Shown: positions 1-60,276, counted from the stretch's first letter. The stretch is DNA of 64,000 bases from an archaeon (GCA_043803745.1 JAZDJS010000021.1:16738-80737); one strand, 5' to 3'. Translations and numbers: made by a program. Notes: generated from the sequence alone by a model not told the origin.

Positions 1-1648
1 AAGATGTAGTCAAGGATCTCGTCCGTAAGGTCTGCCGGAGTCAGTTTCTCCTCCTTGATTATGTGGGAAACTGTGTAGTAAGCCATGTAAATCACCGAAT
101 CCGAAAGGGTTTCGACAATCCAGGATTTGTCCCAGGGCAAAGGGGTGCCGAGCCCGGAGCGGCGGGCGCAGGCCTTGTCATGGAGCCAGTCGACCGTGTT
201 CTCGAACTGGGTCCGGTAGGTTTCGGGACGGAAGTTCATTTTCGAGATTGCCTTCTTCACTTTGACCTTCCAGGCTTCGTCGGAGAATTTCAGGAACCAC
301 TGGTTCTCGAGAATCTTCACAATGCAGGTCGTTCCGCAGCGGCAGACAACATTGTCGTCGGCTTCCCAGATGAAATCCAGGATTCCCGCCGCGAAGAAAT
401 CTTTCTTAAGCTGCTCCTTGCATGCGTCAACGGACATCCCGGCGTATTTGCCGGAGACTGGGAGCATCTTTCCCTCGTGATGTTCCTTCCGGTAAATTTC
501 CTCCTTCGCCTTCTGGAGCTTGTCGGCATCCTTCTGGCTTGATATTCCGAGGCGCTCGACAATCTCCTTCGAGGGATGCTCGCCATATCCCGGGACGGTT
601 ATCACCGCAACGGGCGTCAGCGAAGAGATTTCTTCGGGGTCGATCCCGTATTCGCTGAGGATGGAGGGATTTTTCTTCAAATCCTCCTCCCCGACCCAGT
701 CGAAAGGGGCGTGCGAGGGAACGGACATCACAACCCCCGTCGTATGGCTACCATCTACGAAGTCGGCTGGAAGGATTATCATCCATTTGCCGTTCGCCGG
801 ATTCCTGCATTTCTTCCCGAAGAATTCCCTCGGGCTGAAAGGCGGGCTGACCTCCCCGACATCATTCCGCTGGTTCCGGAGTTTCTCAACCGACTTTTCC
901 GAGACAATCCAGGTTTCCTTTCCGATTTTCACGTCAACATACTTTTCGCTAGGATTGAGGAACATCGAAGTCACTCCGAAGATTGTTTCGGGCCGGAGGG
1001 TTGCCGGGGTGAGGATTCTCCCGTCCTCGAGAGGGAACTTGAGAATTGAAAAGTCCTGGGGACTTGCGCCCTCCCCGTAAAGTCGGTCATGGTCGCCGGT
1101 CGGGCTCTGGCATCTTGTGCAGTAGATTACCGGATGAGTCCCCTGGACAACATATCCCAGCGCGCGGAGGGTGTTGTATTGCCATTCGATGAAGCGGGAG
1201 AATGTCGGGGTGAGCTGCGTCGTGACGAAGGTCCTCCTCCAGTCAATCGAGCCTCCGATTGCGTCAAGGGTTTCCTTGAAAATCCCCTTCCAATAGTTCA
1301 CAATGTAGACCGGTTCGGTGAACTTGCCCAGTTCCCCTTCCGGGACCCCCGAATCAAGGAGAATTTGCCTCTGCTTCTCGTCGCCGGCTTTCAGGCGGGA
1401 GGCAACACCGGCAATAGGCTCGCCGGTCGCGTGGAAACCGAACGGGAAGAGGACGTTTTTTCCTTTCAGCCTTTGGAACCTTGCGGAAACGTCAAGGCGG
1501 GTGAATGTATAGCCATGCCCCATGTGCATTGCGCCGTTGACATATGGGAAGGGGAAAGTGAGGAAGAACTTTTGGCGCGAGTCTGGCTCCGCCTCGAAAA
1601 CCCGCTCCTCCTGCCAGGTTTTGGAGATTTCGGATTCTGATCGTTCCA
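1..1648 (-). CDS. leuS: Leucyl-tRNA synthetase, N-terminal part (the gene runs off the left edge of the window)
   Basis: Reverse-strand translation from the ATG at 1646-1648 gives MERSESEISKTWQEERVFEAEPDSRQKFFLTFPFPYVNGAMHMGHGYTFTRLDV...RFIEWQYNTLRALGYVVQGTHPVIYCTRCQSPTGDHD. This has the class I HxGH-type motif (HMGH) and strong resemblance to archaeal LeuRS (FIEWQF..GDHD block). The + strand ORFs in the track at 63-1640 are shadow ORFs. Confidence 0.85.
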
Positions 1649-1726
1649 TCGGCGGAAAGGGCGCGCAGGCTGTTTTTAAGGGTTGAGGGGGGATTGGACG
1701 AAAAGGACGGAAAGTTTTAAAATCAC

Positions 1727-2359
1727 TTGAATGTGGTCACAAACGTGGCGAAAGATTTCGTTGTTGTTACCGGGATTGGCGAGTTTTCTCTTCTTACTGA
1801 CCTTTTGGAAACTCCTGGAAGGGAAAATCTTGACCTAAAATATTCGGCGAGGGTTTCGACAGGCCTCTTGGGCCTCGCAACCTGTCCCGCAGGAAACGCT
1901 TCCTATGCCCCGAAAGGGATGCCGGATGTTCTTATTGCGGACGGGCCCGAAGGAGTCGCTGGCCTTGTTGCCCTTGGTTTCATACCTTGCCCTGTTTGCA
2001 AGCCGGAAGAGCAGGCGGATTTCTGGCCTGCTGTCGGGGAACTTGTCGGGGAGAAATATCCGGGGATAGCTTCGCCAAAGGATTTCGCTGACAAGGAAAA
2101 GGTTCCGTATGATGTCAGAGAAACGGCTCTGAAAGCAATAGTTTTGCGGACCGGAGCTTTCCCTAACCGGCTCTATCTTCCAAGAGACTTGAGCGAGCAA
2201 GAAATTCTGCAACTTGCGGCGAGGCTCGGAGACATTCAGGATCTTGTTTTGGCTGGCTCCGGAAAATCAATTCATCTGCCGCAGGTAGGATGTTACGACC
2301 GCGATGCGCCAGGTCACTTCAGGGAATACGAACTTCCAAAACTCAGGTCTGATATTTAG
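1727..2359 (+). CDS. Hypothetical protein (TTG start in the track)
   Basis: 210-aa ORF, convergent with the next gene. No recognisable motif. Confidence 0.35.
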   Translation: MNVVTNVAKDFVVVTGIGEFSLLTDLLETPGRENLDLKYSARVSTGLLGLATCPAGNASYAPKGMPDVLIADGPEGVAGLVALGFIPCPVCKPEEQADFWPAVGELVGEKYPGIASPKDFADKEKVPYDVRETALKAIVLRTGAFPNRLYLPRDLSEQEILQLAARLGDIQDLVLAGSGKSIHLPQVGCYDRDAPGHFREYELPKLRSDI

Positions 2360-3032
2360 CAGCCGCTCTCCCAAGGAATTCGGCGGGAATTTTCGCAGTT
2401 CTCAGGTTGTCCCGCAGGAGTCCGAGAGCGACCGCATCCAAGTAATCTGAATGGCTCCCAGCGAAATCTCCAATGTGCAGAACGCCCCTTTCCGCTTTGT
2501 CGAGGTTCTCTTGAACAACCTCCTCTATCCGCGACCGCTCAGCCCTTCGTAAAGTTGGCTCGATTTTCCCGTTTTCTTTTCCAAGAACCTGTGCAATGGC
2601 AGCCATTGTGCAGGGCGTCTCGACAACAGTGTAAGAATATACATCGCCCTCCCTTGAGAGAATTGCCAGCATACGGAGATTCTCGGTAGCATAGCGAGAA
2701 TATTCCCCAACGCAGTAAACAACGCTCCCGTCCGATTCGGGCTCAGGGGAAATCCGGGCATACATGTCCGCTATTGCCCAAGCATCCCTGCGGGGATGAG
2801 GCATTTCAAGAAAATATTCAATTATTTCTTCCTCAGGGTATATCTCGCCGGGTTTTGCCAGATCGTCTATCCACAAAATCGCGCTCGCAGGATCCCTTTC
2901 AAGGGAGCCTATTTCTAAGGAAAAATCCAGGAACGCCTGAAGGTCCCCCTTTTCTTCGGATTCTGCAAGCTTTTCGCGCAGTCTGGGGACTAGTTTTTCA
3001 TTCGCAAAGGCGGCATAATCCCGGACAAACAT
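2343..3032 (-). CDS. Hypothetical protein
   Basis: 229-aa ORF with acidic, protein-like composition. No recognised domain. Confidence 0.45.
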   Translation of the reverse strand: MFVRDYAAFANEKLVPRLREKLAESEEKGDLQAFLDFSLEIGSLERDPASAILWIDDLAKPGEIYPEEEIIEYFLEMPHPRRDAWAIADMYARISPEPESDGSVVYCVGEYSRYATENLRMLAILSREGDVYSYTVVETPCTMAAIAQVLGKENGKIEPTLRRAERSRIEEVVQENLDKAERGVLHIGDFAGSHSDYLDAVALGLLRDNLRTAKIPAEFLGRAAAKYQT

Positions 3033-3165: not shown

Positions 3166-3365
3166 TTTTCTTTTGCGCCCGTCAACGGAGCTTTTCTTTT
3201 GCGAAAAGAAAAGATGGGTTGGGAGTGGACTGGACGGGAGTCCCCTACCGGACTTCGGCTAGCGCCTCAGGAACCCGTGACAGTGGGGTTTTCTTTTGCG
3301 CCCGTCAACGGAGCTTTTCTTTTGCGAAAAGAAAAGATGGGTTGGGAGTGGACTGGACGGGAGTC
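3166..3365. repeat. Tandem direct repeat with a 123-bp period. Copies are about 77 nt and about 74 nt are identical. Each copy ends with the last 17 nt of tRNA-Ala (tggactggacgggagtc) preceded by a conserved palindromic trailer.
   Basis: Copy 1 is at about 3166-3242 and copy 2 at 3287-3365. Copy 2 overlaps the 3-prime end of the tRNA-Ala gene. The 44-nt spacer at 3243-3286 contains gaacccgtgac, which is a T-arm fragment. Confidence 0.9.
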
Positions 3366-3420: not shown

Positions 3421-3606
3421 GTGCGTCTATCCAAGTTCAGTGGCGGTATATTAGCATTCCTGAGCCATCAGGCAAAGTCCGTGAGCGCACGGATACCACT
3501 GAACTACCCGCCCTTTTTTTACTGAACCCGAGCCATCGCAGGCGAGGTCCGCGCTTGATGCACGGATACCGGCCCTTGAACTTTTGGAAACTCTTCCGGG
3601 TTTTTA
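3421..3606 (-). other. Two tandem degenerate units of about 90 nt upstream of tRNA-Ala. They contain tRNA-like 5-prime fragments (GGGCGGGTAGTTCAGTGGTA on the minus strand), hairpins (TCCGTGCGCTCACGGA; CCTGATGGCTCAGG) and A/T runs. This is a possible structured ncRNA or pseudo-tRNA.
   Basis: The minus-strand read gives GGGCCGGTATCCGTGCATCAAGCGCGGACCTCGCCTGCGATGGCTCGGG.. and GGGCGGGTAGTTCAGTGGTATCCGTGCGCTCACGGACTTTGCCTGATGGCTCAGG.. The units are homologous to each other. The + strand copies end in T7 and T5 runs. Confidence 0.3.
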
Positions 3607-3668: not shown

Positions 3669-4076
3669 ATGACTAAAAAGAGGGGCTACGCACTGCGCGT
3701 CGGGGAGTATCTTCACGAGCTTTGGCCCAACGCAATCCTCTGCCGCCCTGACAAGGAAATCCCTCAGAAAAACGGAAAGAGGCCTGACTGGCTTGTTCTC
3801 GACTCGGTTGATGAGCTTGACGGACGGACAACATATCGAGTTTTTCCCGTTGAAGTCAAACAGAGACACGCGCTGGATGGAGAAGAACAAATACGCAGGG
3901 CGACTACAAGGGCTGTTGTCGATTTTTACCGCAGAAGACCTGATGTAAGACCTGCGGTGACTGAAATTCTCCGGGGAAGTTGGGAACTTCTTCCAGGGTA
4001 TGTTGCTTCATCTGAATCGCCTCCGGAAGGCGCGCCAATTCAACACCTGCTCGTTCCTTTGAGCTATCATCGTTGA
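3669..4076 (+). CDS. hjc: PD-(D/E)xK nuclease, probably Holliday junction resolvase Hjc
   Basis: 135 aa. KKRGYALRVGEYLHEL ... PDWLVLD ... VFPVEVKQR matches the Hjc motifs (KRKG..E..; PDIIA; LIEVKS). A TATA-like ATATTTAAATAA lies about 26 bp upstream. Confidence 0.55.
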   Translation: MTKKRGYALRVGEYLHELWPNAILCRPDKEIPQKNGKRPDWLVLDSVDELDGRTTYRVFPVEVKQRHALDGEEQIRRATTRAVVDFYRRRPDVRPAVTEILRGSWELLPGYVASSESPPEGAPIQHLLVPLSYHR

Positions 4077-5420: not shown

Positions 5421-5573
5421 AGGTTCTAAGGCTTGATGGTAGTTTATAAAATGAAGTTTTTCTTACGCCCGTCAACGGATTTTCTTTTTGCCAAAAAGAA
5501 AATGGGTTGGATGTTGACCGGATTTCGCTCTTATCTCGGCGTGCGTTAAGGCAAGGAGGGAGTTTATAAAATG
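5396..5573. repeat. Direct repeat with a 117-bp period. It duplicates the first roughly 28 nt of tRNA-Ser plus its TATA promoter (unit A 5396-5453, unit B 5513-5573, about 85% identical). The palindromic trailer element lies between the units.
   Basis: gttgaccggatttcgctatctcggcaggttctaaggcttgatggtagtttataaaatg versus gttgaccggatttcgctcttatctcggcgtgcgttaaggcaaggagggagtttataaaatg. Confidence 0.85.
5443..5450 (-). promoter_or_regulatory. Archaeal TATA box (TTTATAAA) for tRNA-Ser
   Basis: Palindromic TATA centred about 26 nt upstream of the tRNA 5-prime end. Confidence 0.6.
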
Positions 5574-12777: not shown

Positions 12778-12842
12778 GAAGGGGATTTTCCGGCAAGGAT
12801 ATAAAACAGTTGCCCCTTTCTCCCTTGCCGGGGAAAAGTGAA

Positions 12843-13883
12843 ATGGGCCTTCAGATAAGGGAAATCATTCCGAAATCCGCCGTTAGCGCGGTTTCCCTGG
12901 ATTCTTTCAAAGGAACCGTCGTTGCGGTCGATGCATTCAACGCGCTCTACCAGTTCCTTGCGACAATCCGGCAGCAGGACGGTACGCCTCTTATGGATTC
13001 GGCGGGGAAGGTTACGAGCCATTTGTCCGGGATTTTCTACAGGAACATCCGGCTTCTTGAGGCTGGGGCGCGGATTGTCTATGTTTTCGACGGGAAAGCC
13101 GGGGCTGAAAAGGCGGAGACAATCAGGAAGCGGGAGGAAACCAAGAAGAAAGCCGAGGAGAAATACGAGGCAGCTGTTGAGGAAGGGGACCTTGAATCGG
13201 CAAGGAAATATGCCCAGGCAACAAGCAGGCTTGACACCCAGATGATTGAGGAGGCGAAAAGCCTCCTGAAAGCAATGGGAATTCCCGTTGTTAACGCGCC
13301 CTCCGAGGGGGAATCCCAGGCAAGCTTCCTTGCAAAGGAAGGGAAAGCGAATTTTGCGGCAAGCCAGGATTACGACTGCCTCCTTTTCGGCGCGCCAATC
13401 CTTGTACGGAACCTGAGCGCAACAAGCAGAAGGCGCGCGCCCGGCGGGAAATATGTCGAGGTTCCGATTGAGGCAATTGAGCTTGCGAAGGTTCTTGAGG
13501 GTTTGAAGCTTGACAGGGAACAGCTTGTTGCGCTCGGGATTCTTGTCGGAACTGATTATAATCCGGGGGGAATCAAGGGGATTGGCCCGAAAAAGGCGCT
13601 CAATTTGATTGAAAGTGAAAAAACCTTTGAAAGGATTTTCAAACAGGTTTCGGACAAATGGACTTTCGGGATAACTCCGGAGGAAATCCGGGAGCTTTTT
13701 CTGAATCCGAAAGTTGACTCTTCAGTTGAAATCGGCGAGGAAACTCTCGATTCAGCCAAGATAAAGGAGATTCTTTGCGGCAAGCACGAGTTCTCAGCAG
13801 AGAGAATTGATTCATCGCTCAGCAAGCTTCAGAGTATTGTTTCCGAGTCTAAAAAGCAGAAAGGCTTGAATGAGTGGTTTTAG
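12843..13883 (+). CDS. fen: Flap endonuclease 1 (FEN-1)
   Basis: MGLQIREIIPKSA...VVAVDAFNALYQFL...VYVFDGKAGAEK...GIPVVNAPSEGESQASFL...QDYDCLLFGAP. This is canonical archaeal FEN1. Start chosen at the internal ATG at 12843. Confidence 0.9.
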   Translation: MGLQIREIIPKSAVSAVSLDSFKGTVVAVDAFNALYQFLATIRQQDGTPLMDSAGKVTSHLSGIFYRNIRLLEAGARIVYVFDGKAGAEKAETIRKREETKKKAEEKYEAAVEEGDLESARKYAQATSRLDTQMIEEAKSLLKAMGIPVVNAPSEGESQASFLAKEGKANFAASQDYDCLLFGAPILVRNLSATSRRRAPGGKYVEVPIEAIELAKVLEGLKLDREQLVALGILVGTDYNPGGIKGIGPKKALNLIESEKTFERIFKQVSDKWTFGITPEEIRELFLNPKVDSSVEIGEETLDSAKIKEILCGKHEFSAERIDSSLSKLQSIVSESKKQKGLNEWF

Positions 13884-27867: not shown

Positions 27868-28671
27868 GTGCCGGACAGGCAAAACCCACGAATGGACGGG
27901 AAAACCGCCGAAAAGGCAATTGAAAAATCCGGGCAGAACCTCCTGATCTTCCTGATAATCCTGACCTTCCTATACGTGATACTCCAAAACTTCTCGCCCT
28001 TTTTCAGGATTGCCGTCCCCCTTGCAACGGCAATCGCGGTCTACCGCACAATGAAGGCGTCGGAGAGAAAATCTCCTGAGACGATAGAAACGAAGACCTG
28101 GAAGCTTGTCGCAGTCTGCCTCGGAATATGGCTCGCAGGGGAGCTTTCGGTGGTTGCTTTTTTCGCCAGGGAGGGCTTCGTTCCCTATCCATCCCTTGCC
28201 GAAATTTCCTATCTCATCGGGTATGTGCTCATGGGCGCGGGGGCTTTCAGCATAATAAGGAAGGTCGATGTCAAGCTTCCGATAACGCACATCCTGACGT
28301 TCACCCTAGTGGTCCTGCTTTTTTCCGGAGCGGTGACAAACTTCGTTATAGCGCGCGCCCTTATGAGCGAAGCCCCTTTTCTCGAAAAGGCGTTCAACAT
28401 CGGCCTCCCGATTGCCGACATGATGCTGATAATAGTCGTTTTCGCAATCTACTTCGTCTACTTCGGTTCCGGAAGGAAGGAACGCCTCCTTGAAGAAAGC
28501 TGGGCCGTTGTAATACTCGGAATGACCTTTTCGGCTTTCGCGGACATAATAATGACGTACAGCAAGATAAGGCTAATCGATTCGATTTACCTTGCGCTCC
28601 TCCCCGGAATCCTCTACATCTGGTCGCGGGGGGTTGTCGGGCTTGGAGCGAAGGCGCGGTCTTCCAACTGA
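27868..28671 (+). CDS. Integral membrane protein
   Basis: 267 aa, multi-TM. It is followed by the hairpin CCCCCCTAACGGGGGG plus a T-rich tract, a terminator-like structure at 28713-28740. Confidence 0.5.
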   Translation: MPDRQNPRMDGKTAEKAIEKSGQNLLIFLIILTFLYVILQNFSPFFRIAVPLATAIAVYRTMKASERKSPETIETKTWKLVAVCLGIWLAGELSVVAFFAREGFVPYPSLAEISYLIGYVLMGAGAFSIIRKVDVKLPITHILTFTLVVLLFSGAVTNFVIARALMSEAPFLEKAFNIGLPIADMMLIIVVFAIYFVYFGSGRKERLLEESWAVVILGMTFSAFADIIMTYSKIRLIDSIYLALLPGILYIWSRGVVGLGAKARSSN

Positions 28672-28712
28672 ACTACCTGCCCGTCAAAGATCCCCCCTAA
28701 CGGGGGGCTTTC

Positions 28713-31756: not shown

Positions 31757-32155
31757 GTGAGTTTTTCCAAACTCGATTATGAGAAAACTTCCGCCAAGGG
31801 GGTCCTGATTGCAGCCGTTGAAACTGGCCGGGCAAAATCTGTCTCGGTGATAAAATTCCTCCCCGGCTCAAGCTTTCCAAGCCATTCCCACGGGAAAGCA
31901 ACGGAGCGTTATTTCGCGGTTTCAGGCAAGGGCATCGTTTCCGTTGGGAAGCTGAAACGGGTTCTGGACAAGGGGGATTCAATCGAGATTGGGCGAGGAA
32001 GGGTTCATTCCGTTTCCAATCCGTTCAAGAGGCAGTTCGTAATGGTCGAGATTTCAATTCCCGGATTTGACGAAAAAGACGTTCTGTTTGGACCAAAAGG
32101 CCGGAAGATTCAAGCGGAAAGGATTAAATACCGGAAGAGCCGGCCTTTCCACTAA
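31757..32155 (+). CDS. Cupin-domain protein
   Basis: FPSHSHGKATERYFAVSGKG...GDSIEIGRGRVHSV. Confidence 0.55.
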   Translation: MSFSKLDYEKTSAKGVLIAAVETGRAKSVSVIKFLPGSSFPSHSHGKATERYFAVSGKGIVSVGKLKRVLDKGDSIEIGRGRVHSVSNPFKRQFVMVEISIPGFDEKDVLFGPKGRKIQAERIKYRKSRPFH

Positions 32156-32156
32156 T

Positions 32157-33314
32157 ATGAGGGGCAGCCTTTTTGCGGATTCAACTGGATTCTCCGAGAA
32201 AAACCTTTTCAGGGACGAGGGGATCCTTTACTCGGATTTCCTTCCGGACAAGCTGCCGCACAGGGAAGGCCATGCGCGCTTCCTTGCTGATTGCCTGAGG
32301 CCAATCACCGGCGGGAAGAGCCCGGAGAACGTTTTCATCTGGGGTCCCGCAGGGGTCGGGAAAACCTCCGTTGCGAAGTTCGTCCTCCGGGAGATGAAGG
32401 AGCACACCGAAATCCCTGTTGTCTACATAAACTGCTGGCAGAACGACACGAGGCACGCGGTCCTGACGACAATCGCATATGCGCTTGGGAGCTTTGCGCC
32501 CCGGAGGGGGACTGCGACCGATGAAATCTTCGAAAAGGCCTGCGAGGGGATGAAAAGGCGCGGGGGGAAGGGGCTTGTGATCGTGCTTGACGAGATTGAC
32601 AAGCTCCTTGCGAACGACGGGGGGCGGCTTCTCTACGACCTTGCAAGGGGACCGGTCTTTACCGGAAAGACGGGAATCGTCATGATTTCTAACGACGAAT
32701 ATGCCCTCCGGAAACTCGACGACCGGACGAGGAGCAGCCTCTCCTACCAAGAGTCCTCATATCCCGCATATTCCTTCGAGGAGCTGAAAGGGATTTTCTC
32801 GGAAAGGATCGGGGCTGCGTTCGTCGAGGGTTCCGTGAAAGCGGGAGTGAACTCCGCGGTTGCGAGGATTGTCGCGGATTCCGGCGGGGACGTAAGGCTC
32901 GGGCTCGACTGCCTCCTCAAGGCGGGACGGCTTGCAGAATCCGACGGGAAGGATTTTTCGGTCGAGCACGTCCAGAAGATGATTGGGAAGATCCAGAACA
33001 GCAAGACGAAGGCGATAATCACGGGGCTCGAGAGAAACCTCCTTGGAATCGTCAGGATTCTCGCTGCGACCGGGATAAGGGAGAAAACAACCGGGGAGCT
33101 TCTTGCCGATTATTCGCGGGAAATGGGGGAAACGAACGAGCGGACCTTCAGGAACTACCTGACTGAGCTCGAGACGAAGGGAGTGATAACCTCGGTGATG
33201 AGCGGCAAGGGCCAACGGGGGAAAACAAGGATAATCACGCTGAAGAACTCCGAGATGGTAAGGAGAATCCTTCAATCAGCTAATGAGGATGGCAAAGGAG
33301 GAAAGGAAAAATAA
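32157..33314 (+). CDS. cdc6: Orc1/Cdc6 replication initiator (AAA+ plus C-terminal winged helix)
   Basis: HREGHARFLADCL...IWGPAGVGKTSVAKFV (Walker A), VIVLDEIDKL (Walker B). Start at the ATG at 32157. Confidence 0.9.
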   Translation: MRGSLFADSTGFSEKNLFRDEGILYSDFLPDKLPHREGHARFLADCLRPITGGKSPENVFIWGPAGVGKTSVAKFVLREMKEHTEIPVVYINCWQNDTRHAVLTTIAYALGSFAPRRGTATDEIFEKACEGMKRRGGKGLVIVLDEIDKLLANDGGRLLYDLARGPVFTGKTGIVMISNDEYALRKLDDRTRSSLSYQESSYPAYSFEELKGIFSERIGAAFVEGSVKAGVNSAVARIVADSGGDVRLGLDCLLKAGRLAESDGKDFSVEHVQKMIGKIQNSKTKAIITGLERNLLGIVRILAATGIREKTTGELLADYSREMGETNERTFRNYLTELETKGVITSVMSGKGQRGKTRIITLKNSEMVRRILQSANEDGKGGKEK

Positions 33315-35125: not shown

Positions 35126-35521
35126 ATGAGAAACGGAATGTTTTTTGTTGCCTCAGGGATACTGATTTTCGCGGGGATACTCCTCGCTGGGTGTGTTTCA
35201 TCAGCGCAGGGACTGGGGGGGAGCCCGGGGGGGAGCCCAGGGGGGAGCCTTAGCACGCCTCCGACAACCGCCCCCGCTCCGGAAGAGAAAACCTTCACTC
35301 TTTCTGAGATTGCCGGATATTCGACAAAGGAAAACTGCCTGATTGCGATAAACGGGAGCGTCTACAACATTACGGGGTATTTCGGCAAGCATCCTGCGGG
35401 GGACCGGACTTTGCTTTCCGGCTGCGGGAAGGATGCGACGGGAATCTTCAGCGAGAAGCATTCCCAGACGGCGTGGCAGCTTCTGCCCTCGTTCTATGCC
35501 GGAAAACTGGCCGGGCAATAA
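35126..35521 (+). CDS. Cytochrome b5-like heme/steroid-binding domain lipoprotein
   Basis: Lipobox-like LAGC. GGSPGGSPGGS linker. FTLSEIAGYSTKENCLIAINGSVYNITGYFGKHPAG is a b5-like motif. Confidence 0.5.
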   Translation: MRNGMFFVASGILIFAGILLAGCVSSAQGLGGSPGGSPGGSLSTPPTTAPAPEEKTFTLSEIAGYSTKENCLIAINGSVYNITGYFGKHPAGDRTLLSGCGKDATGIFSEKHSQTAWQLLPSFYAGKLAGQ

Positions 35522-35575: not shown

Positions 35576-35827
35576 ATGTCCTTCCTTGACACACTGAAAG
35601 TAATTACCTTCTTCGGAATTCTTGCAGCAGTCTTCATAGTCAGCCTTGGAAGGCGGCTTTTCGGCTGGGGGATAAAGCCAACTCAGGCCCAGCCTCCACC
35701 GCCAAATCCGCCGGGCCCTCAGCAGGTCAGGTCCCCTCAGCCTCCCGAGCAGGGCCGGATTCCGTCTCCAGCTCGACAACAGCAGTATCCTCCTCAGCAA
35801 CCACAACAGCAACAGAGGAAGTTCTGA
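35576..35827 (+). CDS. Small membrane protein with a Pro/Gln-rich tail
   Basis: 83 aa. One TM helix followed by PPPPNPPGPQQ...QQPQQQQ. Confidence 0.3.
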   Translation: MSFLDTLKVITFFGILAAVFIVSLGRRLFGWGIKPTQAQPPPPNPPGPQQVRSPQPPEQGRIPSPARQQQYPPQQPQQQQRKF

Positions 35828-35851
35828 TTATTTGAAACGGGAAAATGGTTC

Positions 35852-36029
35852 CCGTGCTCCCGACGGTTGAGTCATCTTCAGAGGACGAAATCTCGGGACG
35901 CGAGCGCGTTAGACCCGCCAGACGAAAAAGTGCGAGTGCTCCCGACGGTTGAGTCATCTTCAGAGGACGAAATCTCGGGACGCGAGCGCGTTAGACCCGC
36001 CAGACGAAAAAGTGCGAGTGCTCCCGACG
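35852..36029. repeat. Perfect tandem repeat of 2 x 82 bp plus a 13-nt third start. Each unit begins with the last 13 nt of tRNA-Glu (gtgctcccgacgg) followed by 69 nt of trailer.
   Basis: Units at 35852-35933 and 35934-36015 are identical. The third unit is the tRNA 3-prime end itself. Confidence 0.9.
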
Positions 36030-36091
36030 GGATTTGAACCCGTGTCTCGGGCTCGAGAAGCCCAGATCCTTGGCCGAGCTAGACGACAGGA
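36017..36091 (-). tRNA. tRNA-Glu (anticodon CTC)
   Basis: The reverse complement is GCTCCTG-TCGTCTAGCTCGGCCAAGGATC-TGGGC TTCTCGA GCCCG-AGAC-ACGGG TTCAAAT CCCGT-CGGGAGC-A. Confidence 0.85.
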
Positions 36092-36187
36092 GCTTGAGAA
36101 TCGGGTCTTTCTCCCCGTTTTAAACGTTTTCCATCGAGTTTCGCCCAACCCAAAAATCTTTTTAACCTCTGTTCTTCCGGTTAGGCC

Positions 36188-36305
36188 GGGTCCATAGCTC
36201 AGCCCGGTAGAGCGGCAGTCTTATATGACTGTGTTCTATACACAAAGGATAGACTAGGTCTGAGTCAGCTGTTGGTCATGGGTTCGAATCCCATTGGGCC
36301 CACCA
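36188..36305 (+). tRNA. Intron-containing tRNA (118 nt including the encoded CCA). The tentative mature anticodon loop is CTTATAA, giving anticodon UAU (tRNA-Ile2 type). The isotype is uncertain.
   Basis: GGGTCCA-TA-GCTC AGCCCGGTA GAGC-G-GCAGT CTTATA | 41-nt intron (contains the hairpin TGTGTTCTATACACA) | A-GCTGT-TGGTC-ATGGG TTCGAAT CCCAT-TGGGCCC-A-CCA. The acceptor has a G4:U pair. A GCCCC-TTCA-GGGGC hairpin follows immediately. Confidence 0.65.
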
Positions 36306-36365
36306 GCCCCTTCAGGGGCTGAAGAAATTCCCACAGCCAGCATTCCCTTTGCGCTCTGAGGGGCT

Positions 36366-36410
36366 CATTGGGCCCACCAGAGCCCGTTTTCTTTTCCGAA
36401 AGAAAAAGCC
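36366..36410 (+). repeat. Copy of the tRNA 3-prime end (cattgggcccacca) 74 bp downstream of the intron-containing tRNA, followed by the palindromic trailer (gcccgttttcttttccgaaagaaaaag)
   Basis: 14-nt exact copy at 36366-36379. The trailer at 36381-36410 is similar to the elements at 3176-3222 and 5463-5510. Confidence 0.7.
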
Positions 36411-36426
36411 TTCGGGGAAAAAGAAA

Positions 36427-37326
36427 TCATTGGAGCGGGAAATACCTGCAAAAGGCGCAGAGCTTTCCCGAGGTCGGCTCCCTGCCGCAGGAGGGACAGA
36501 GCCGCGTCTCCTTCCCGAGGAGGGGGGCAAAAACCGGCTGGCCCTTGGAAAGATAGCTCAAGTAGAATTTCAGCCTGAATCCCGGTTCCCTCTTTTCAGC
36601 TGAAGAGAGGATTGCTTGCCACTTTTCCGTCTTCGGCTCCTTTGAAAAATTGCATTTCTTCTTCAAGTAGGGGAGTTTGAATAGTTTCGCCCAGTTTGAA
36701 AGCTCCTCCTTCGAGAAGAGGCAGAGCGGCTTTACCTTCTTCCCGAATCCAGGCAAGAGGCCGGAAACAATGGGAGTTCTCCGGGAAAGAATGTCTGGAT
36801 TCCAGGAATATACGCCGCCGAAAATCGCGGCTGTTTCGTCGTCAAGGTGATGGCCGGTTGCGAACGGGATTCCGGATTCCCGCGCCTCCCGGTTCAGGAG
36901 GGCGTTCCTTATTTCGCTGCAGGTTGCGCAGGGGTTTCGCCCCGTTCTTGAAAGTATTTCCCCGAGGGATTTATCCGGCTTTAGCAGCTTCAACTCAACG
37001 CCGCAGAAGCCGGAAATTCTCTCCGCAGCTTTTCTCGATTTGACTGAGAAAGCCCCGTTGCCCAAATCAACATGGATTGCGCGGACATTGAAACCGGCAA
37101 GCTTGAGCGAGTGGCAGAGGACGGAGCTGTCAAGGCCTCCGGAAAGCGCGACAAGGAAGGAGTTTCCCATCTGGAAATTCTTGACAGTCCAGTTTATTCT
37201 CCGAAGGAACCATTCCTTGTAATGCTCCCTGCAAAGGTCGTATTTGTGAGCCGGGAGGTGGAAGATTGCCTTTTTCTTCGCCGGGGCGTTCTTCTTGATG
37301 CAGATTGTGCAGTAAGGTGAAGACAC
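36427..37326 (-). CDS. PP-loop ATP pyrophosphatase of the TtcA/NcsA (Ctu1-like) tRNA thiolation family
   Basis: SGGLDSSV PP-loop, N-terminal CxxC and C-terminal CPSCG..CAFC zinc/Fe-S cysteines. Confidence 0.6.
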   Translation of the reverse strand: MSSPYCTICIKKNAPAKKKAIFHLPAHKYDLCREHYKEWFLRRINWTVKNFQMGNSFLVALSGGLDSSVLCHSLKLAGFNVRAIHVDLGNGAFSVKSRKAAERISGFCGVELKLLKPDKSLGEILSRTGRNPCATCSEIRNALLNREARESGIPFATGHHLDDETAAIFGGVYSWNPDILSRRTPIVSGLLPGFGKKVKPLCLFSKEELSNWAKLFKLPYLKKKCNFSKEPKTEKWQAILSSAEKREPGFRLKFYLSYLSKGQPVFAPLLGKETRLCPSCGREPTSGKLCAFCRYFPLQ

Positions 37327-39411: not shown

Positions 39412-42400
39412 TCTTTTTCCCCTGCAGGTTCTCTTGAGGACTCCGACCCTTCCCGGGAGAAACCGATTTCCGCGGCCCCGAGCCCGAGGTCGCCGAGGGA
39501 AACGCTGTCGCAGAAAACTTTCGAGCCACTCATTATCCTCACAAGCTCCATTTCCTGCGCCCCGACCTTCTCTTTCATAGCGGGGAGGAAGGGCGTTATC
39601 AGCTGCTCGGCCTTTTCGTCAAGACCGAGCTCAAGGACTATTTTCTGGGAAACCGTGAAACCGGAATCCTTCCGCATTGCCTGAATCTTGCGCGTGATTT
39701 CCCGGGAAGCTGCCTCGCCAAGCAGCGCGTCGTCAAGCTTCTTGTCAACGAAAACGACGAAGCCCGCTTCCTCGCCTCTCGCGTAATCGCCTGCGGGCTC
39801 CTCCGGGGAAACCTCGATTTTCTTGCAGTTCGCAAGGCGGGAGATAATTTCCCCCGCGAGGGAAATTGCCCTGGAAATGCCCTCTTCCTTGGAAACCACG
39901 ATTGCCTTCGCAACTGGATATCTGAGTTTTATTCCGGCAGCGTTCCGCGCAGCCATCAGAGCCTCAATTACTTTCTGGGCTGTGAAGACGGCCTCCTCAA
40001 GGGCTGAGTCGATTTTCCCTTCCTCGCATTCCGGCCAGGAACAGAGATGAATCGACTCTGAAACGGAGGAATCAAAGCTCTTCTCAAAGTTCTGGTAGAT
40101 TTCCTCGGAAATCATTGGGACGATTGGCGCCGAAAGCCGCAGTAGCTTTGAAAGAACCTCGTAAAGGGTCTGGTATGCGGCAAGCTTGTCCTCCCCCTGC
40201 GCGCCGGGCCAAGTCCTCTCGCGGATCAGCTTGATGTATGTCCGAGAAAGGTCGTTCACGAAAAACTTTTGGAGTGTCTCGGAAGTCTCCTCAATCTTGT
40301 AGTTGTCGAATGCTTCCGTAAGCCCTCGCACAAGGCTGTTGAGCCTTGAGAGAATCCATTTGTCCTCGATTTTCTTCTCGACCTGAGCCCCGCCGGGCCT
40401 GAATCCGTCAACGGACATGTAGCCGTGGGCGAAAGAATAGCTGTTGTAGAGAATCCGGAGATTGTTGAAAGCGTCCCTGACATATCTTTCGGAATATGAC
40501 ATGTCTTCCCCCGCCTTTGCGGAGGAGATGAAGAACATCCGGAGGCTGTCCGCCCCGTATTTCGGAAGGACTTCCTCGGGGGAAACGAAATTGCCAAGGG
40601 ATTTCGAGAATTTCCGCCCAATCTCGTCGTTAACGAATCCGTGCATGTAAACCGCCTTGTAGGGCGCTCGCCCGGTTGCAAGGACGCCGAGGCACATCAG
40701 GCTGTTGAACCAGCCGCGTATCTGGTCCTTGCCCTCGATTATGAAGTCGACAGGATAGGAGTCCGAAAGAACGTTCGGGTTTTCCGCCGGGAAGCGCTGG
40801 GCCGCCCAGGAGGCGGAACCGGCTTCTCCCCAGACATCGAAAATATCTGGCACGCGCGTCATGGCGTCCCGCTTGCATTTCTTGCACGCGAACTTTATCT
40901 CGTCAATCCAGGGCCTGTGCAAATCCTTCGGCTGGGTCGGGAGCTCTTTCGCGGAACCGACAACCTCTATTTCCCCGCAGTATTCGCATTTCCATATTGG
41001 GAGGGGAACGCCCCAGTATCTCTGGCGGGAGATGCACCAGTCCTGGAGGTTATCGAGCCAGGAATCGAACCAGGAAGAACCCGCCCAGTCCGGGACCCAC
41101 TTGACCTGCTTGTTCGCCTCGCGCATCTTCTCCTTGAGGCTTGCGGTTGAGAAGAACCACTGAGTCGTCGCAAGGAATATCAGGGGCGTCTTGCATCTCC
41201 AGCAAATCGGGTATTCGTGCGTGAATTTCTCGGTTGAGAAAAGCAGGCCTTTCTTCTCAAGATCCTCGATTATTTTCGGGTCGGCGTCCCTCTTGGCAAT
41301 GAATCCGTGATATTTGCCGGCCTCCTCGGTGAATGCTCCGGAAAGCTTGATCGGGCAGAACATGTCAAGGCCCTCCTTCTTCCCAACCTCAAAATCCTCG
41401 GGACCGGTTCCCGGAGCCAGGTGGACGCATCCGGTTCCGGCATCAAGATGGACATATTCCTTCGAGAGGACGACTGAATGGTTCTTATTGTCCTTCTCAG
41501 CAAACTTCCTCTGGGCGGGGATCTCGTCAATCAGGGGGTGGACGTACTTCAGACCGGCAAGCTCGGAGCCGGGAACCTCCTTCACGATTTTGTATCCGCG
41601 CCCGGCAAGTATCTTTTCCGCAAGCTCCTTTGCAAGTATCAGGGTCTCCCTCGGGGTCTCCCTCGGGGTCTCCCCGGGGAGCTCCCCGCCGCACTCGGCA
41701 TAGACATACTGGAAATCCGGGTTTACCATCACCCCCATGTTTGTCGGGAGCGTCCAAGGGGTTGTCGTCCATATCAGTATGAATGTTTTCTCGGCTCCGG
41801 CGACCGGGAACTTCACGAATATCGAGTTCTCAGTTATGTTCGCGTATTCCTGCTCGTGCTTGGCAAGGGCGGTTTCGCAGCGGGGGCATGCCGTAAGGAC
41901 CTTCGGCCCGTTGACAAGGTAGTTGCTGAGATATGCCTGCTTTATTCCCCACCAGACACCCTCGATGTAATAGTTCTCGATTGTCAGGTAGGGATTCTCC
42001 CAATCCATCCAGACCCCGAGGCGGATGAACTGGCCGTTCATTATCGCCAGGTTCTTCTTCGCGAAATTCCGGCAGTAGTTCACGAAATTCCCGACGCCGT
42101 ATTCCTCAATCTGCTTTTTGGATTTTATCCCGATTTCCTTCTCGACCTTGAGCTCGACCGGGAGCCCGTGCATGTCGTATCCCGGGGTGTCATTTACCGA
42201 AAAGCCCCGCATTGCCTTGTAGCGGAGGACCGAATCCTTCATTATCTTGTTCCAGGCGGTTCCGAGGTGTATTGCGCCGGTCGGATAGGGGGGTCCGTCA
42301 ATGAACGTGAACCTAGGCTTGCCGGACTGACCGGCCTTCCATTTTGAATAAATCGACTTCTCTTTCCAGAACGAAAGAATCCGCTCTTCTGTTGGAACTA

Positions 42401-51171: not shown

Positions 51172-52237
51172 CGAATAGGCTTGCTAGTTTCAGATACTTC
51201 CCCTCCCAGGAAAGGAATGCATTCTTGTCAAGGAAAAAGACCAGGCAGCCGCCGAAAATGAGCCCGACCGAGTGAGGCCAAGGGGCTTCCGGGGTCCCCT
51301 CCCGGGTTTTCTCGGTCACCGAAAGCTGGTATGCTTTCCGTTCTATTTCCCTCCGTTCGGTTGAAATCGTCTTCTTATCCCCGCTCGTCTCAAGGATGTC
51401 GCGGGAAATCAGCGTCATTTTCCGGGATTCGTCGGTAATGTTTCCGTCAAGGCGCGAGAGTTCCAGGAGGATTTCCTGCGCCTGGCTCGAATAGGCCGCC
51501 TCGCTGATTTTCCCGGAAGCCTTCTGCTCGTCAATAAGCTTGAGGCGTTCCTCGAGCTGGGCGCGGGTCTCCTGCTTCTCGGAAATTGTCCGGTTTATTT
51601 CGTTGCGCTCGGACGAAAGGTTCATTATTTTTTCCCAGAGGATCGAGTCAACCGTTGAAAGCACGTCCCGCTCAGCGGCAATCCTTTCGACGAACGCGGT
51701 TTCGACAGAGTCAACTGCCCTGACAACGATTGGAGCGAAAAGGTTTATTGCCGCGACGAAAAGCGTCATCGAGAGGAAGGGCCTGAGGACAACTGCGGCG
51801 CCTATCAGCCCGAATACCGCCCCGCTCGAGCCAATCAGGGTCTTCGTCGGGAAGAAAAGCAGGTTCACAAGACCCCCGAGAAAGCCGGAGGAAAGGAAAA
51901 TCAGGAGGGTTTTCCAGCCGCCGATTCTCCTTTCGACAATTGTTCCGAATACAAGTAGGAGCATCCCGTCGACAAGAAGGTGGCTTGGCCAGAGATGGAT
52001 GAACATGTATGTGAGGATGGACCAGGGAGCGTTGTAGTGGAGGCCGAGGGTTGCAAGAAAGTCATAGGAGGGGGAAACGAAGGGGAAGAAGCTCACCGAG
52101 AGATAGTAGATGAAAAGCGTTATTGAGAAAATGTATAGGGTGACCAGGGGGAGCCATTCCCGACCCGGAAGCTCCCGCTTCGGGGGGGCTGCTTTCGCCG
52201 AATTTCCGGAAGCGGCGCCGCGCCTTTTCTTCGGCAT
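51146..52237 (-). CDS. Rhomboid-family intramembrane serine protease with a coiled-coil extension
   Basis: GSSGAVFGLIGA (GxSG catalytic Ser) and a later TM His. The C-terminal half is predicted coiled coil. Confidence 0.65.
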   Translation of the reverse strand: MPKKRRGAASGNSAKAAPPKRELPGREWLPLVTLYIFSITLFIYYLSVSFFPFVSPSYDFLATLGLHYNAPWSILTYMFIHLWPSHLLVDGMLLLVFGTIVERRIGGWKTLLIFLSSGFLGGLVNLLFFPTKTLIGSSGAVFGLIGAAVVLRPFLSMTLFVAAINLFAPIVVRAVDSVETAFVERIAAERDVLSTVDSILWEKIMNLSSERNEINRTISEKQETRAQLEERLKLIDEQKASGKISEAAYSSQAQEILLELSRLDGNITDESRKMTLISRDILETSGDKKTISTERREIERKAYQLSVTEKTREGTPEAPWPHSVGLIFGGCLVFFLDKNAFLSWEGKYLKLASLFVRRGKPAD

Positions 52238-52255: not shown

Positions 52256-52462
52256 TTACTTGAGGGCGCCGCGCCTTTTCGCGCACTTGAAACACAGGTA
52301 AAGCTTCTGCGTAGGACGGTAATATTTCCCGATAAAGTTCTTCCCGCCCGTAAGCCCCTTGTCAATCATTGGCTTGTGCTGCACAATCGCCCTTGACTGG
52401 GGGATTCTTCTATGGCATGAATCGCAGGTAATCACCTTTTCGCTTCCTCTTGCTCCGCTCAT
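52256..52462 (-). CDS. Small zinc-ribbon protein, possibly ribosomal protein eS26-like
   Basis: 68 aa. ITCDSCHRRIPQSRAI...KLYLCFKCAKRRG follows the C-x2-C ... YxC-x2-CA pattern of eS26. Confidence 0.3.
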   Translation of the reverse strand: MSGARGSEKVITCDSCHRRIPQSRAIVQHKPMIDKGLTGGKNFIGKYYRPTQKLYLCFKCAKRRGALK

Positions 52463-57924: not shown

Positions 57925-58002
57925 GGACCCGTAGCTTAGCTTGGATAGAGCGAGTGGCTTCGAACCACTAGGTCGGGGGTCCAAATCCCTCCGGGTCCGC
58001 CA
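57925..58002 (+). tRNA. tRNA-Arg (anticodon TCG), CCA encoded
   Basis: GGACCCG-TA-GCTT AGCTTGGATA GAGC-G-AGTGG CTTCGAA CCACT-AGGTC-GGGGG TCCAAAT CCCTC-CGGGTCC-G-CCA. Confidence 0.85.
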
Positions 58003-58130
58003 AGCGTCCCCTCAGATCTCGCCCAGGTGAAAGCGCGCATAATAGGCTTGACCTCCGGGTCCGCCAAGCGTCCCCTCAGATCTCGCCCAGGTGAAAGCGC
58101 GCATAATAGGCTTGACCTCCGGGTCCGCCA
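57990..58130. repeat. Tandem repeat of 64 bp x 2.2. Each unit starts with the last 13 nt of tRNA-Arg(TCG) including CCA (tccgggtccgcca).
   Basis: Units at 57990-58053 and 58054-58117 are identical. A third start at 58118-58130 then diverges. Confidence 0.9.
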
Positions 58131-58193
58131 GAACCCATCCTCCGCGGAGGATCCGTTCGCGGGCGTCAAAGAAAGGTTGTGAAAAACCATAAA

Positions 58194-59634: not shown

Positions 59635-60276
59635 ATGAAGGAACTCGAGAAGGAGGTTGCGTCTGGTGGGGGACCCGAGGGGGGACCCGAGGGGGGACCC
59701 GGTGGGGAACCTTGCGAGTGCACTTGCAAGGGCAATAAGGAGCCCGAGGAATCCGGAGCCAAAGTTACGCTTCAGTCGAAAGAAGAGGTTGGCAAGGAAC
59801 TTCGGTTGCTTCGGCTTGCAGCGGATTTCGAGAACTACAAGAAGCGGACCGCGAAGGAATTCGCAGACCAGAGGAATTCCGGCAAGAAGGACCTGCTTGA
59901 AAAGCTAATCTCCCTTTCGGACACCTTCGAGCTTGCGCTCCATTCAGTGAAGAACGCAAGCCCCGAGGTTCTGAAGGGTTTCCTAATGATACAGAACCAG
60001 CTCAAAGCAATACTCTCCGGGGAAGGCGCCGAACCTTTCGGAACTTCTGGCGAGCATTTCGACCCGTTCAGGCACGAGGCTGTCGAATTCGTCGCTTCCG
60101 CGGGGGGCGCGGAAGAGGGAACTGTCTCGGAGGTAATCCAGAAGGGATACCTTTTCAAGGGGAACCTGCTCAGGCCCTGTGCGGTCAAGGTATTCAAGAA
60201 CGCTACTCATCAGACAGGAGATGTCAAAGAAGATGCGGCACCCACGTCTGAACCTGAAATGAAACAAATGGAGTGA
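59635..60276 (+). CDS. grpE: GrpE nucleotide exchange factor
   Basis: [17 protein letters not shown]. It has an unusual N-terminal [13 protein letters not shown] + CECTCKG segment. Confidence 0.8.

Follow-up and report, generated by a model that had tools for sequence, protein, structure and literature searches.

What process places copies of the end of a tRNA gene around a non-coding spacer of 69 nt and then doubles the product without a single mismatch? The question is raised by the tRNA-Glu(CUC) gene of an archaeon, which we examined within a window, the term used here for the whole analyzed stretch of 64,000 nucleotides (GCA_043803745.1 JAZDJS010000021.1:16738-80737). Partial copies of tRNA genes are, to our knowledge, the standard footprint of mobile elements and always lie around kilobases of element DNA; in this deep-branching, DPANN-like archaeon, most tRNA genes of the window carry the footprint around only 49-74 bp. 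The window represents archaeal core chromosome, with genes for Orc1/Cdc6, FEN1, IleRS, aIF-2B, DnaK/GrpE, HerA, and Toprim proteins, and among species representatives a Candidatus Micrarchaeum MAG stands nearest, with 63% IleRS identity. The feature is real: it is a duplication of the tRNA end at a proposed insertion site, and it is notable for being miniature, prevalent, conserved, and recently amplified.

TRF places the repeat at 35854-36030, with a period of 82, 2.2 copies (2.16), 100% matches, and zero indels; the perfect 2 x 82-bp repeat described in an initial annotation is thereby confirmed, and its limits, given there as 35852-36029, are shifted by 1-2 nt. On the plus strand, each 82-nt unit starts with GTGCTCCCGACGG, the reverse complement of positions 62-74 of tRNA-Glu(CUC), so that the repeat does begin, as had been proposed, in the 3′ end of the tRNA gene; by Rfam alignment numbering, this core contains the 3′ strand of the T stem, the 3′ strand of the acceptor, A73, and one further C. 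Read in the orientation of the tRNA, the array runs CCGTCGGGAGCAC-69 nt-13 nt-69 nt-13 nt, followed by GGGAACCATTTTCCCG: three 13-nt cores with two identical 69-nt spacers between them. The annotation had correctly counted two units starting with the tRNA end and had overlooked the third copy of the core, which implies that the precursor was a core-spacer-core arrangement rather than a plain tRNA flank. In tRNA orientation, each spacer starts with TCGCACTTTTTCG, whose T5 run corresponds to the T-rich, terminator-like tract noted earlier, and also holds CTCGCGTCCC and two CGTCC boxes. The open reading frames (ORFs) at 35727-35957 (-) and 35949-36197 (+) exist and, in agreement with the annotation, are both regarded as spurious, since the second crosses tRNA-Glu antisense. 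A chance origin of the repeats is excluded because shuffled windows yield 0-2 repeated 13-mers within 20-200 nt, compared with 10 pairs in the actual window, 7 of them at tRNA genes.

The initial annotation missed that the same architecture stands at other tRNA genes of the window (Table 1) and that the spacer is unlike the native trailer. At tRNA-Arg(UCG), three 15-nt cores (at 57988, 58052, and 58116) enclose two identical 49-nt spacers. At tRNA-Ile(UAU), which is divergent to tRNA-Glu at a distance of 94 nt, the last 15 nt are repeated once, 74 nt downstream, and a trailer module comes next (about 36381-36427); this gene was not called by ARAGORN, because of its 42-nt intron, and was recovered by Rfam only. 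The repeat at tRNA-Ala is composed of an 18-nt tRNA end (positions 57-74) and a 59-nt trailer module at a spacing of 123, with 46 nt between the copies (3243-3288) that contain a T-arm piece, GTCACGGGTTC, and a 28-nt insert, and this 3′ duplication is apparently young; the copy of the tRNA-Ser promoter and 5′ fragment lies 117-120 nt upstream of its gene. The window genes for tRNA-Arg(CCG) and tRNA-Ser are without a core-spacer-core element. Counting all kinds of duplication, five of the six tRNA genes in the window are affected; in other archaeal loci, totaling 1.3 Mb, the count is 1/28 (Fisher P = 1.3e-4). The cores of tRNA-Glu, of tRNA-Arg(UCG) in both the window and the relative described below, and of the relative's tRNA-Arg(CCG) begin at position 62, that of tRNA-Ile at 63, and that of tRNA-Ala at 57, and cores end 1-4 nt past the discriminator; the duplicated cores across loci measure 13, 14, 14, 15, and 15 nt, lengths that are near 14 and non-uniform, with a spread to which chance extension could have contributed.

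Table 1. Positions of tRNA genes, cores, spacers, and trailers in the window, or in the relative's assembly L090 where named
Feature	Position	Strand	Description
tRNA-Glu(CUC)	36018-36093	-	ARAGORN; Rfam tRNA, 50.7 bits, full alignment; gene intact
Glu core copy 1	36018-36030	-	Last 13 nt of tRNA-Glu, inside the gene
Glu spacer copy 1	35949-36017	-	69 nt, adjoins the tRNA
Glu core copy 2	35936-35948	-	CCGTCGGGAGCAC, tRNA positions 62-74
Glu spacer copy 2	35867-35935	-	Identical to copy 1 (TRF, 100%; blastn, 69/69)
Glu core copy 3	35854-35866	-	Presumed native trailer comes next
Presumed native tRNA-Glu trailer	35839-35853	-	Hairpin GGGAACCATTTTCCC; read from the sequence and the trailer comparison
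tRNA-Ile(UAU)	36188 to about 36306	+	Rfam, 57 bits; 42-nt intron at 37/38
tRNA-Ile core copy 1	36292-36306	+	CATTGGGCCCACCAG, positions 63-77
tRNA-Ile single unit	36307-36380	+	59-nt spacer (36307-36365) and core copy 2 (36366-36380)
tRNA-Arg(UCG)	57925-58002	+	Core copy 1 is the last 15 nt, 57988-58002, positions 62-76 including CCA
tRNA-Arg(UCG) array	57988-58130	+	TRF period 64, 2.2 copies, 100%
Conserved trailer module at tRNA-Arg(UCG)	58131-58176	+	AACCCAT, hairpin ATCCTC/GAGGAT, TCCGTTCGCGGGCG, AAAGAAAGG
Trailer module sites	3166-3224, 3289-3347, 5454-5512, 36381-36427, 58131-58176; L090, about 12890-12935		
tRNA-Ala 3′ partial duplication	3166-3365	-	Perfect 77-nt repeat, 3289-3365 and 3166-3242
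tRNA-Ala 5′ fragment	3494-3513	-	19/20 nt match, 93 nt upstream of the gene
tRNA-Ser upstream pseudo-cassette	5454-5573	-	Promoter-like TATA box and first ~25 nt of tRNA-Ser, then Ala-type trailer module
L090 tRNA-Arg(CCG) unit	13203-13304	+	14-nt core CCAGCAGGCCCGCC twice, 74-nt spacer, period 88

Two further observations concern tRNA fragments. A T-loop insert of ~27-28 nt stands directly after GGGTTC (position 56/57) in the tRNA-Ala 3′ fragment (window 3243-3288, minus strand) and recurs in the relative (L090, about 12800-12880, minus strand), where, downstream of the module, it follows a T-arm fragment of tRNA-Arg, with a z of 10 for the 33-nt alignment; an intron was considered here and rejected, with no BHB and no significant fold. 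A lone fragment resembling a tRNA 5′ half, GGGCAGGTAGTTCAGTTGGAAGACCGCGCCTTCGC, lies on the minus strand at 28650-28682, overlapping the 3′ end of the ORF at 27868-28671; the hairpin CCCCCCGTTAGGGGGG stands before it, its first 16 nt have one mismatch to the 5′ end of tRNA-Ala(CGC), and it gave no Rfam tRNA hit.

The position of the units relative to the gene can be read from the trailers. The general trailer module consists of AACCCAT, a variable hairpin, TCCGTTGACGGGCG with a UUGA or UUCG loop, and then AAAGAAA; it follows the last core at tRNA-Arg and tRNA-Ile and both cores at tRNA-Ala, and within the window its motifs occur only beside tRNAs or tRNA fragments. The first hairpin varies in sequence among loci and keeps its pairing, and in L090 the changes in the Arg module are confined to hairpin loops. 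The trailer past the last Glu core starts in a similar fashion, with AACCAT and then a T-rich hairpin, the combination of AACC(C)AT and T-rich sequence being common to the tRNA trailers of the window. A trailer of this type is missing after the first core, and its presence after the last core but not the first indicates that the units lie between the gene and its native trailer.

The spacers themselves resemble nothing in their surroundings. Those of Glu, Arg, and Ile are similar neither to the tRNA nor to the promoter of their own locus (p = 0.24-0.70), and blastn found nothing similar to them in the rest of the window or in the fetched loci; derivation from a decayed half of their own tRNA was not significant at any of the three, and derivation from the trailer module was discarded after the trailer comparison revealed no similarity. 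The 17-nt arms that precede the downstream cores, in contrast to the T-arms of their own tRNAs, which they do not resemble, are alike across different tRNAs (33 versus 18.3 +/- 4.1 for random 17-mers; P = 0.0025), although this similarity is weak. CTCGCGTCCC is common to the Glu and Arg spacers, and CGTCC, a motif picked post hoc, occurs 8 times, on the sense strand only, compared with 0.5 expected. A degenerate arm pattern, CTCTN{3,7}GRCTYR, was not enriched (9 versus 6.2 expected) and was circular, and the pairwise arm test was used instead. The units are no more stably folded than their shuffled counterparts (z from -0.3 to +0.9), terminal inverted repeats are present in neither the Glu nor the Arg units, the Ile spacer alone having inverted ends, and an Rfam search of the unit (E <= 10) returned no family, C/D-box sRNA included. 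A C/D-box reading, based on CUGA beside AGAUGA in the Glu unit, was rejected because proper internal boxes were absent and Rfam lent no support, and a BHB intron or split-tRNA leader was rejected because the tRNA is complete without the unit and there is no BHB or significant fold. An Orc1/Cdc6 gene at 32067-33314 (+) lies 2.5 kb from the Glu array, and a replication origin may be near; the Glu spacer bears no resemblance to the known ORB origin consensus.

The age of the unit could be approached through a relative. A homolog of the agmatinase beside the Arg array, 70% identical, lies on contigs syntenic with the window at 48.7-63 kb, and three assemblies (L090, L091, and L092), from different samples and independent metagenomes, have one and the same sequence across 840 nt surrounding the tRNA-Arg pair. 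In L090, CCTCCGGGTCCGCT comes after tRNA-Arg(UCG), and then a 62-nt spacer, the same 14 nt, and the same module, that is, one unit compared with the window's two. The two Arg(UCG) spacers are homologous over their full length and differ by one 30-nt and one 18-nt indel; a block, GCGTCCCCTCAGAYCTCKCC, is conserved at 18/20 positions, and AGGCTYGR before the core, the 10 nt preceding the core, and the downstream core itself (13/13) are conserved as well. An acceptor-like minihelix in the relative's Arg spacer (GGACUCG with the core) was considered and dropped, its pairing not being kept in the window. The inter-tRNA promoter region, the TATA box excepted, has diverged between the genomes, and four-fold degenerate sites in five orthologous genes are only 38% identical (318/835), which is near saturation; a neutral 14-nt core would have a chance of about 1e-6 of surviving unchanged. 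Such saturated divergence implies that selection, gene conversion, or repeated re-creation has maintained the module, the spacer block, and the perfection of the cores. The tRNA-Arg(CCG) unit of L090 is missing in the window ortholog, so units are gained or lost. The relative comparison rests on the Arg locus (contigs L094 and L095 stop before the tRNAs). For the Glu locus, exact look-ups of window proteins matched nothing, hits in the one metagenome scan were confined to unrelated low-GC archaea that have this tRNA end in unduplicated form, and PP-loop homologs at 50-52% identity were not syntenic.

The one-unit precursor state is thus seen both at tRNA-Ile and at the relative's orthologous Arg locus. 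To judge from these alignments, the core-spacer-core state is evidently of long standing or has been created again and again, and recency applies to the doubling alone, which at Glu and Arg(UCG) appears to be specific to the lineage of the window. The "very recent duplication" of the initial annotation is accordingly upheld for the doubling, given the single unit of the relative at tRNA-Arg(UCG) against two in the window, but not for the single-unit state. Its alternative, active homogenization, gains indirect support from cores that are perfect in both genomes despite saturated neutral sites and from the post-discriminator bases, which are GCCA in one genome and GCT in the other, the copies agreeing within each.

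We favor the interpretation that these sequences are related inserts of 49-74 bp, a family located at the 3′ boundary of tRNA genes, each with a target duplication of 13-15 bp and doubled by exchange between cores, and would give it a probability of roughly 45%. The 82-bp unit would then be a short non-coding insert, a 69-bp spacer with a 13-bp copy of the tRNA end, lodged between tRNA-Glu and the native trailer, and the direct repeat, which begins at tRNA position 62/63 and stops shortly beyond the 3′ end, would be the footprint of site-specific integration, either an att identity block or a target-site duplication (TSD). The tRNA would stay intact through the rebuilding of its 3′ end by the duplicated core, the T5 run of the Glu unit may supply a terminator, and the unit probably has no product of its own. 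Core-spacer-core would be the long-lived single-unit form, and the Glu and Arg(UCG) units would have been doubled afterwards, by unequal exchange or replication slippage between flanking cores or by renewed use of the same target.

Site-specific insertion is favored by the fixed start position and the end at the tRNA terminus, by spacers that are unrelated to the locus and yet have a shared arm, by gain or loss between genomes, and by the fact that the cores of each genome match its own post-discriminator bases, as target duplication would have them do; the three-core arrays at Glu (82) and Arg(UCG) (64) and the one unit at Ile support the family aspect, and the in-frame 12-nt expansions described below are in keeping with a doubling by slippage. 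Several findings count against it. No recombinase, donor, element body, or product was found in the screens described below; the tRNA-Ala 3′ duplicate copies the native trailer perfectly and the tRNA-Ala and tRNA-Ser 5′ duplicates include promoter sequence, which gives these the look of plain local duplications; and an ancestral Arg unit across 38% four-fold identity needs selection or gene conversion, which the model does not supply. The Glu and Arg units are without terminal inverted repeats, the arm similarity is weak, the ortholog comparison covers the Arg locus, and inserts of 49-74 bp are far below the size of any integrative element known to us.

Described systems match the units in part, and some of them display this layout at kilobase scale, in support of the favored reading. 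Known archaeal att cases comprise repeats of 22-44+ bp around 5-50 kb of foreign genes, including an integrase (PMC9897764, PMC3119063). In attL/attR of PYG1 of Pyrococcus yayanosii and of haloarchaeal proviruses, as here, a direct repeat of the tRNA 3′ portion, from the T-arm to the 3′ end, lies downstream of an intact gene that has been rebuilt by duplication, whereas the units in the window are 13-15 bp repeats around 49-69 bp, carry no gene, and are tandemly doubled; at Glu, the tRNA 3′ direct repeat of an att scar is present (as it is at Arg and Ile), but the enclosed 69 bp fall far short of element size, and the screened ORFs of the window revealed no integrase. The tandem casposons at tRNA-Leu in Methanosarcina share one 14-bp TSD, in an element-TSD-element order that results from reuse of the 3′-distal target (PMC4779613), and that length is close to the 13-15 bp seen here; casposons, however, carry several genes, those for Cas1 and PolB among them, and have terminal inverted repeats, whereas inverted repeats are missing from the Glu and Arg units and the screened ORFs of the window yielded no Cas1. 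The tycheposons of Prochlorococcus can be separated from one another solely by a partial tRNA (bioRxiv 10.1101/2020.12.28.424599), but they are bacterial, carry kilobase-scale cargo, and use tyrosine recombinases. CRISPR arrays share with the tRNA arrays a regular periodicity (64-82 bp here) beside a fixed "leader" (the tRNA) and the duplication of a repeat with each added unit; they differ in that the repeats here are 13-15 bp (against a criterion of about 24-47), the spacers within an array are identical, the units are two in number, and no cas genes were found. A Thermoplasmata MAG (L037 18721-19040, plus strand) provides a further case, a tRNA-Gly(GCC) gene whose last 18-19 nt recur twice downstream, at +89 and +245; its spacers differ but share the arm GGGAGATGAGAAGAGGAA before each copy, as serial short scars, and the downstream ORF resembles SAM synthetase (metK) by its N-terminal sequence, so that no element seems left.

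An origin that is purely local, with slippage or unequal exchange at tRNA genes duplicating the tRNA end together with its own flank and no mobile element taking part, is in our estimation unlikely. Under this explanation, there would be stalling at a highly transcribed, cloverleaf-forming gene, old copies would decay except for the 13-15 nt kept by conversion, and the 2 x 82 array would be the newest round. The tRNA-Ala locus fits it well, with its perfect 77-nt repeat of tRNA end and native trailer, its T-arm piece, and a 7-nt filler, as do the promoter sequence within the tRNA-Ala and tRNA-Ser 5′ duplicates, the location of 7/10 of the window's short-range exact repeats at tRNA genes, and the lack of a recombinase among the screened ORFs of the window; in Haloquadratum, the reciprocal event, deletion between the repeats of a partially duplicated tRNA gene, has been documented (PMC3119063). 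Slippage-type duplication is, moreover, frequent in this genome, as indicated by perfect or near-perfect in-frame tandem repeats of 12 nt x ~3 in three genes (35215-35249, 41642-41679, and 59668-59701), which are expansions of tetrapeptides: GGSP in a Cyt-b5-domain protein, (G/R)ETP in IleRS, and GGPE in GrpE. Slippage or unequal exchange readily takes one unit bounded by a pre-existing 13-15 nt repeat to two perfect units, but it accounts for the doubling and not for the first extra core with its unrelated spacer: the units are identical and head-to-tail, yet only at tRNA-Ala does the unit derive from contiguous local sequence, the Glu, Arg, and Ile spacers being unlike both the trailer after the core and their own tRNA. 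The arms, too, resemble one another across tRNAs and not their own T-loops, a shared start at position 62 at three independent loci is unexpected from random breakpoints, and a conversion limited to 13-15 nt ending at the tRNA terminus is ad hoc. Were the units instead relics of kilobase-scale elements (virus, plasmid, or casposon) deleted to <100 bp, with attL and attR too close for excision, the partial tRNA repeats would be the usual footprint of archaeal integration (PMC9897764; PMC3119063; PMC3293823), and the Thermoplasmata locus, with two short scars, a shared arm, and the element gone, would be a parallel. Independent deletions should, however, vary in size, and all six units (from four loci of the window and two of the relative) measure 46-74 bp and contain no piece of a gene; the Arg spacers of both genomes are, in addition, homologous throughout and two clean indels apart, and we find this history hard to credit.

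Conservation at the Arg locus invites a functional explanation, in which spacer, downstream core, and module form a cis-element or small RNA kept by selection, a tRNA-end mimic or hairpin with a part in how the tRNA transcript is terminated, processed at its 3′ end, or stabilized, and the doubling is a neutral accident. The core, GCGTCCCCTCAGAYCTCKCC, the 10 nt before the core, and the module have indeed been kept across 38% four-fold identity while the promoter side drifted, the first module hairpin changes sequence among loci and stays a hairpin, and the excess of CGTCC on the sense strand, post hoc as it is, points in the same direction. We nevertheless consider such a role very unlikely: folding is no better than in shuffles and no Rfam family was matched, the T5 run past the first Glu core should end transcription before the remainder of the unit, the pairing of the relative's minihelix is lost in the window, and the element appears dispensable, given that tRNA-Arg(CCG) and tRNA-Ser of the window are without it and the relative's tRNA-Arg(CCG) has it. 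The assembly itself might be at fault, the contig holding either one unit joined wrongly or a collapsed loop of more than two, with the identity of the units produced by consensus building. The sequence comes from one MAG, represented by one assembly, both arrays stand at the minimum count that contains a unit-to-unit junction, and at k <= 95 (Glu) or k <= 79 (Arg) the de Bruijn graph would be the same for two or more copies. A one-unit genome, on the other hand, should be unable to yield a unit-to-unit junction at k > 15, so that at least two units would be expected in the reads; the relative's one-unit state was assembled identically by three pipelines; and a k-mer overlap mis-join is ruled out by the differing unit lengths of the two arrays (82 and 64). 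A wrong copy number is accordingly highly improbable as an account of the feature, but the true number may be higher than two and differences between copies may have been flattened by short-read de Bruijn assembly, and perfect identity and a count of exactly two are weaker evidence than the initial annotation assumed. In practice, features of this kind lead to spurious ORFs, possible tRNA mis-calls, and an uncertain assembled copy number.

The favored reading, insertion with target duplication, touches on a more specific and distinctly improbable proposal: a class of miniature inserts, not described before, for which an integrase (casposase-like or other, encoded elsewhere or viral) would place ~50-75 bp at position 62 and duplicate 13-15 bp, the units stacking head-to-tail. 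If such a class exists, the conservation would mean that inserts are continually re-made or have been co-opted as a cis-acting tRNA-end mimic, and the arrays would exemplify natural "leader-repeat-spacer" growth at a tRNA. Miniature insertions would more generally point to a new integration activity directed at tRNA genes, in a lineage with virtually unstudied mobile elements, and would offer, on a small scale, a natural system for following how repeats and spacers accumulate at a fixed site; units kept by conversion or selection would constitute a new kind of conserved tRNA-flanking element. The striking aspect is a family of units that extends across tRNAs, one of which has been kept at the same tRNA in a relative at saturated divergence and two of which appear to have just been doubled.

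The search for an enzyme and a donor covered the window and several sequence collections. No integrase, Cas1/casposase, PolB, transposase, or cas gene was detected among the screened window ORFs, the Pfam screen covering ORFs of >= 250 aa and the neighbors of the tRNA loci and the PHROGs/NCBIfam screens covering part of the unannotated ORFs. The junctions and spacers of Glu, Arg, and Ile had no exact match in IMG/VR, and plasmid and phage collections contained neither a match to the spacers nor a donor with an arm-core-spacer junction; the viruses of this lineage are probably absent from these resources. Five consecutive ORFs (159-229 aa) at 63-3032, directly downstream of the tRNA-Ala 3′ duplications, have no Pfam, PHROGs, or NCBIfam hit and may be a foreign island whose far end lies beyond the window. 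A 135-aa ORF at 3669-4076 (+), between tRNA-Ser and tRNA-Ala, gave no family hit; by eye only, its …PDWLVLD…VFPVEVK… recalls the PD-(D/E)xK nuclease motif. Identical GC hairpins with T-runs (GGCGCCGCGCCTTTTC), 51 nt apart, occupy intergenic positions 52214-52229 and 52265-52280 (+); they resemble tandem terminators and are among the few short-range exact repeats of the window that lie away from tRNAs.
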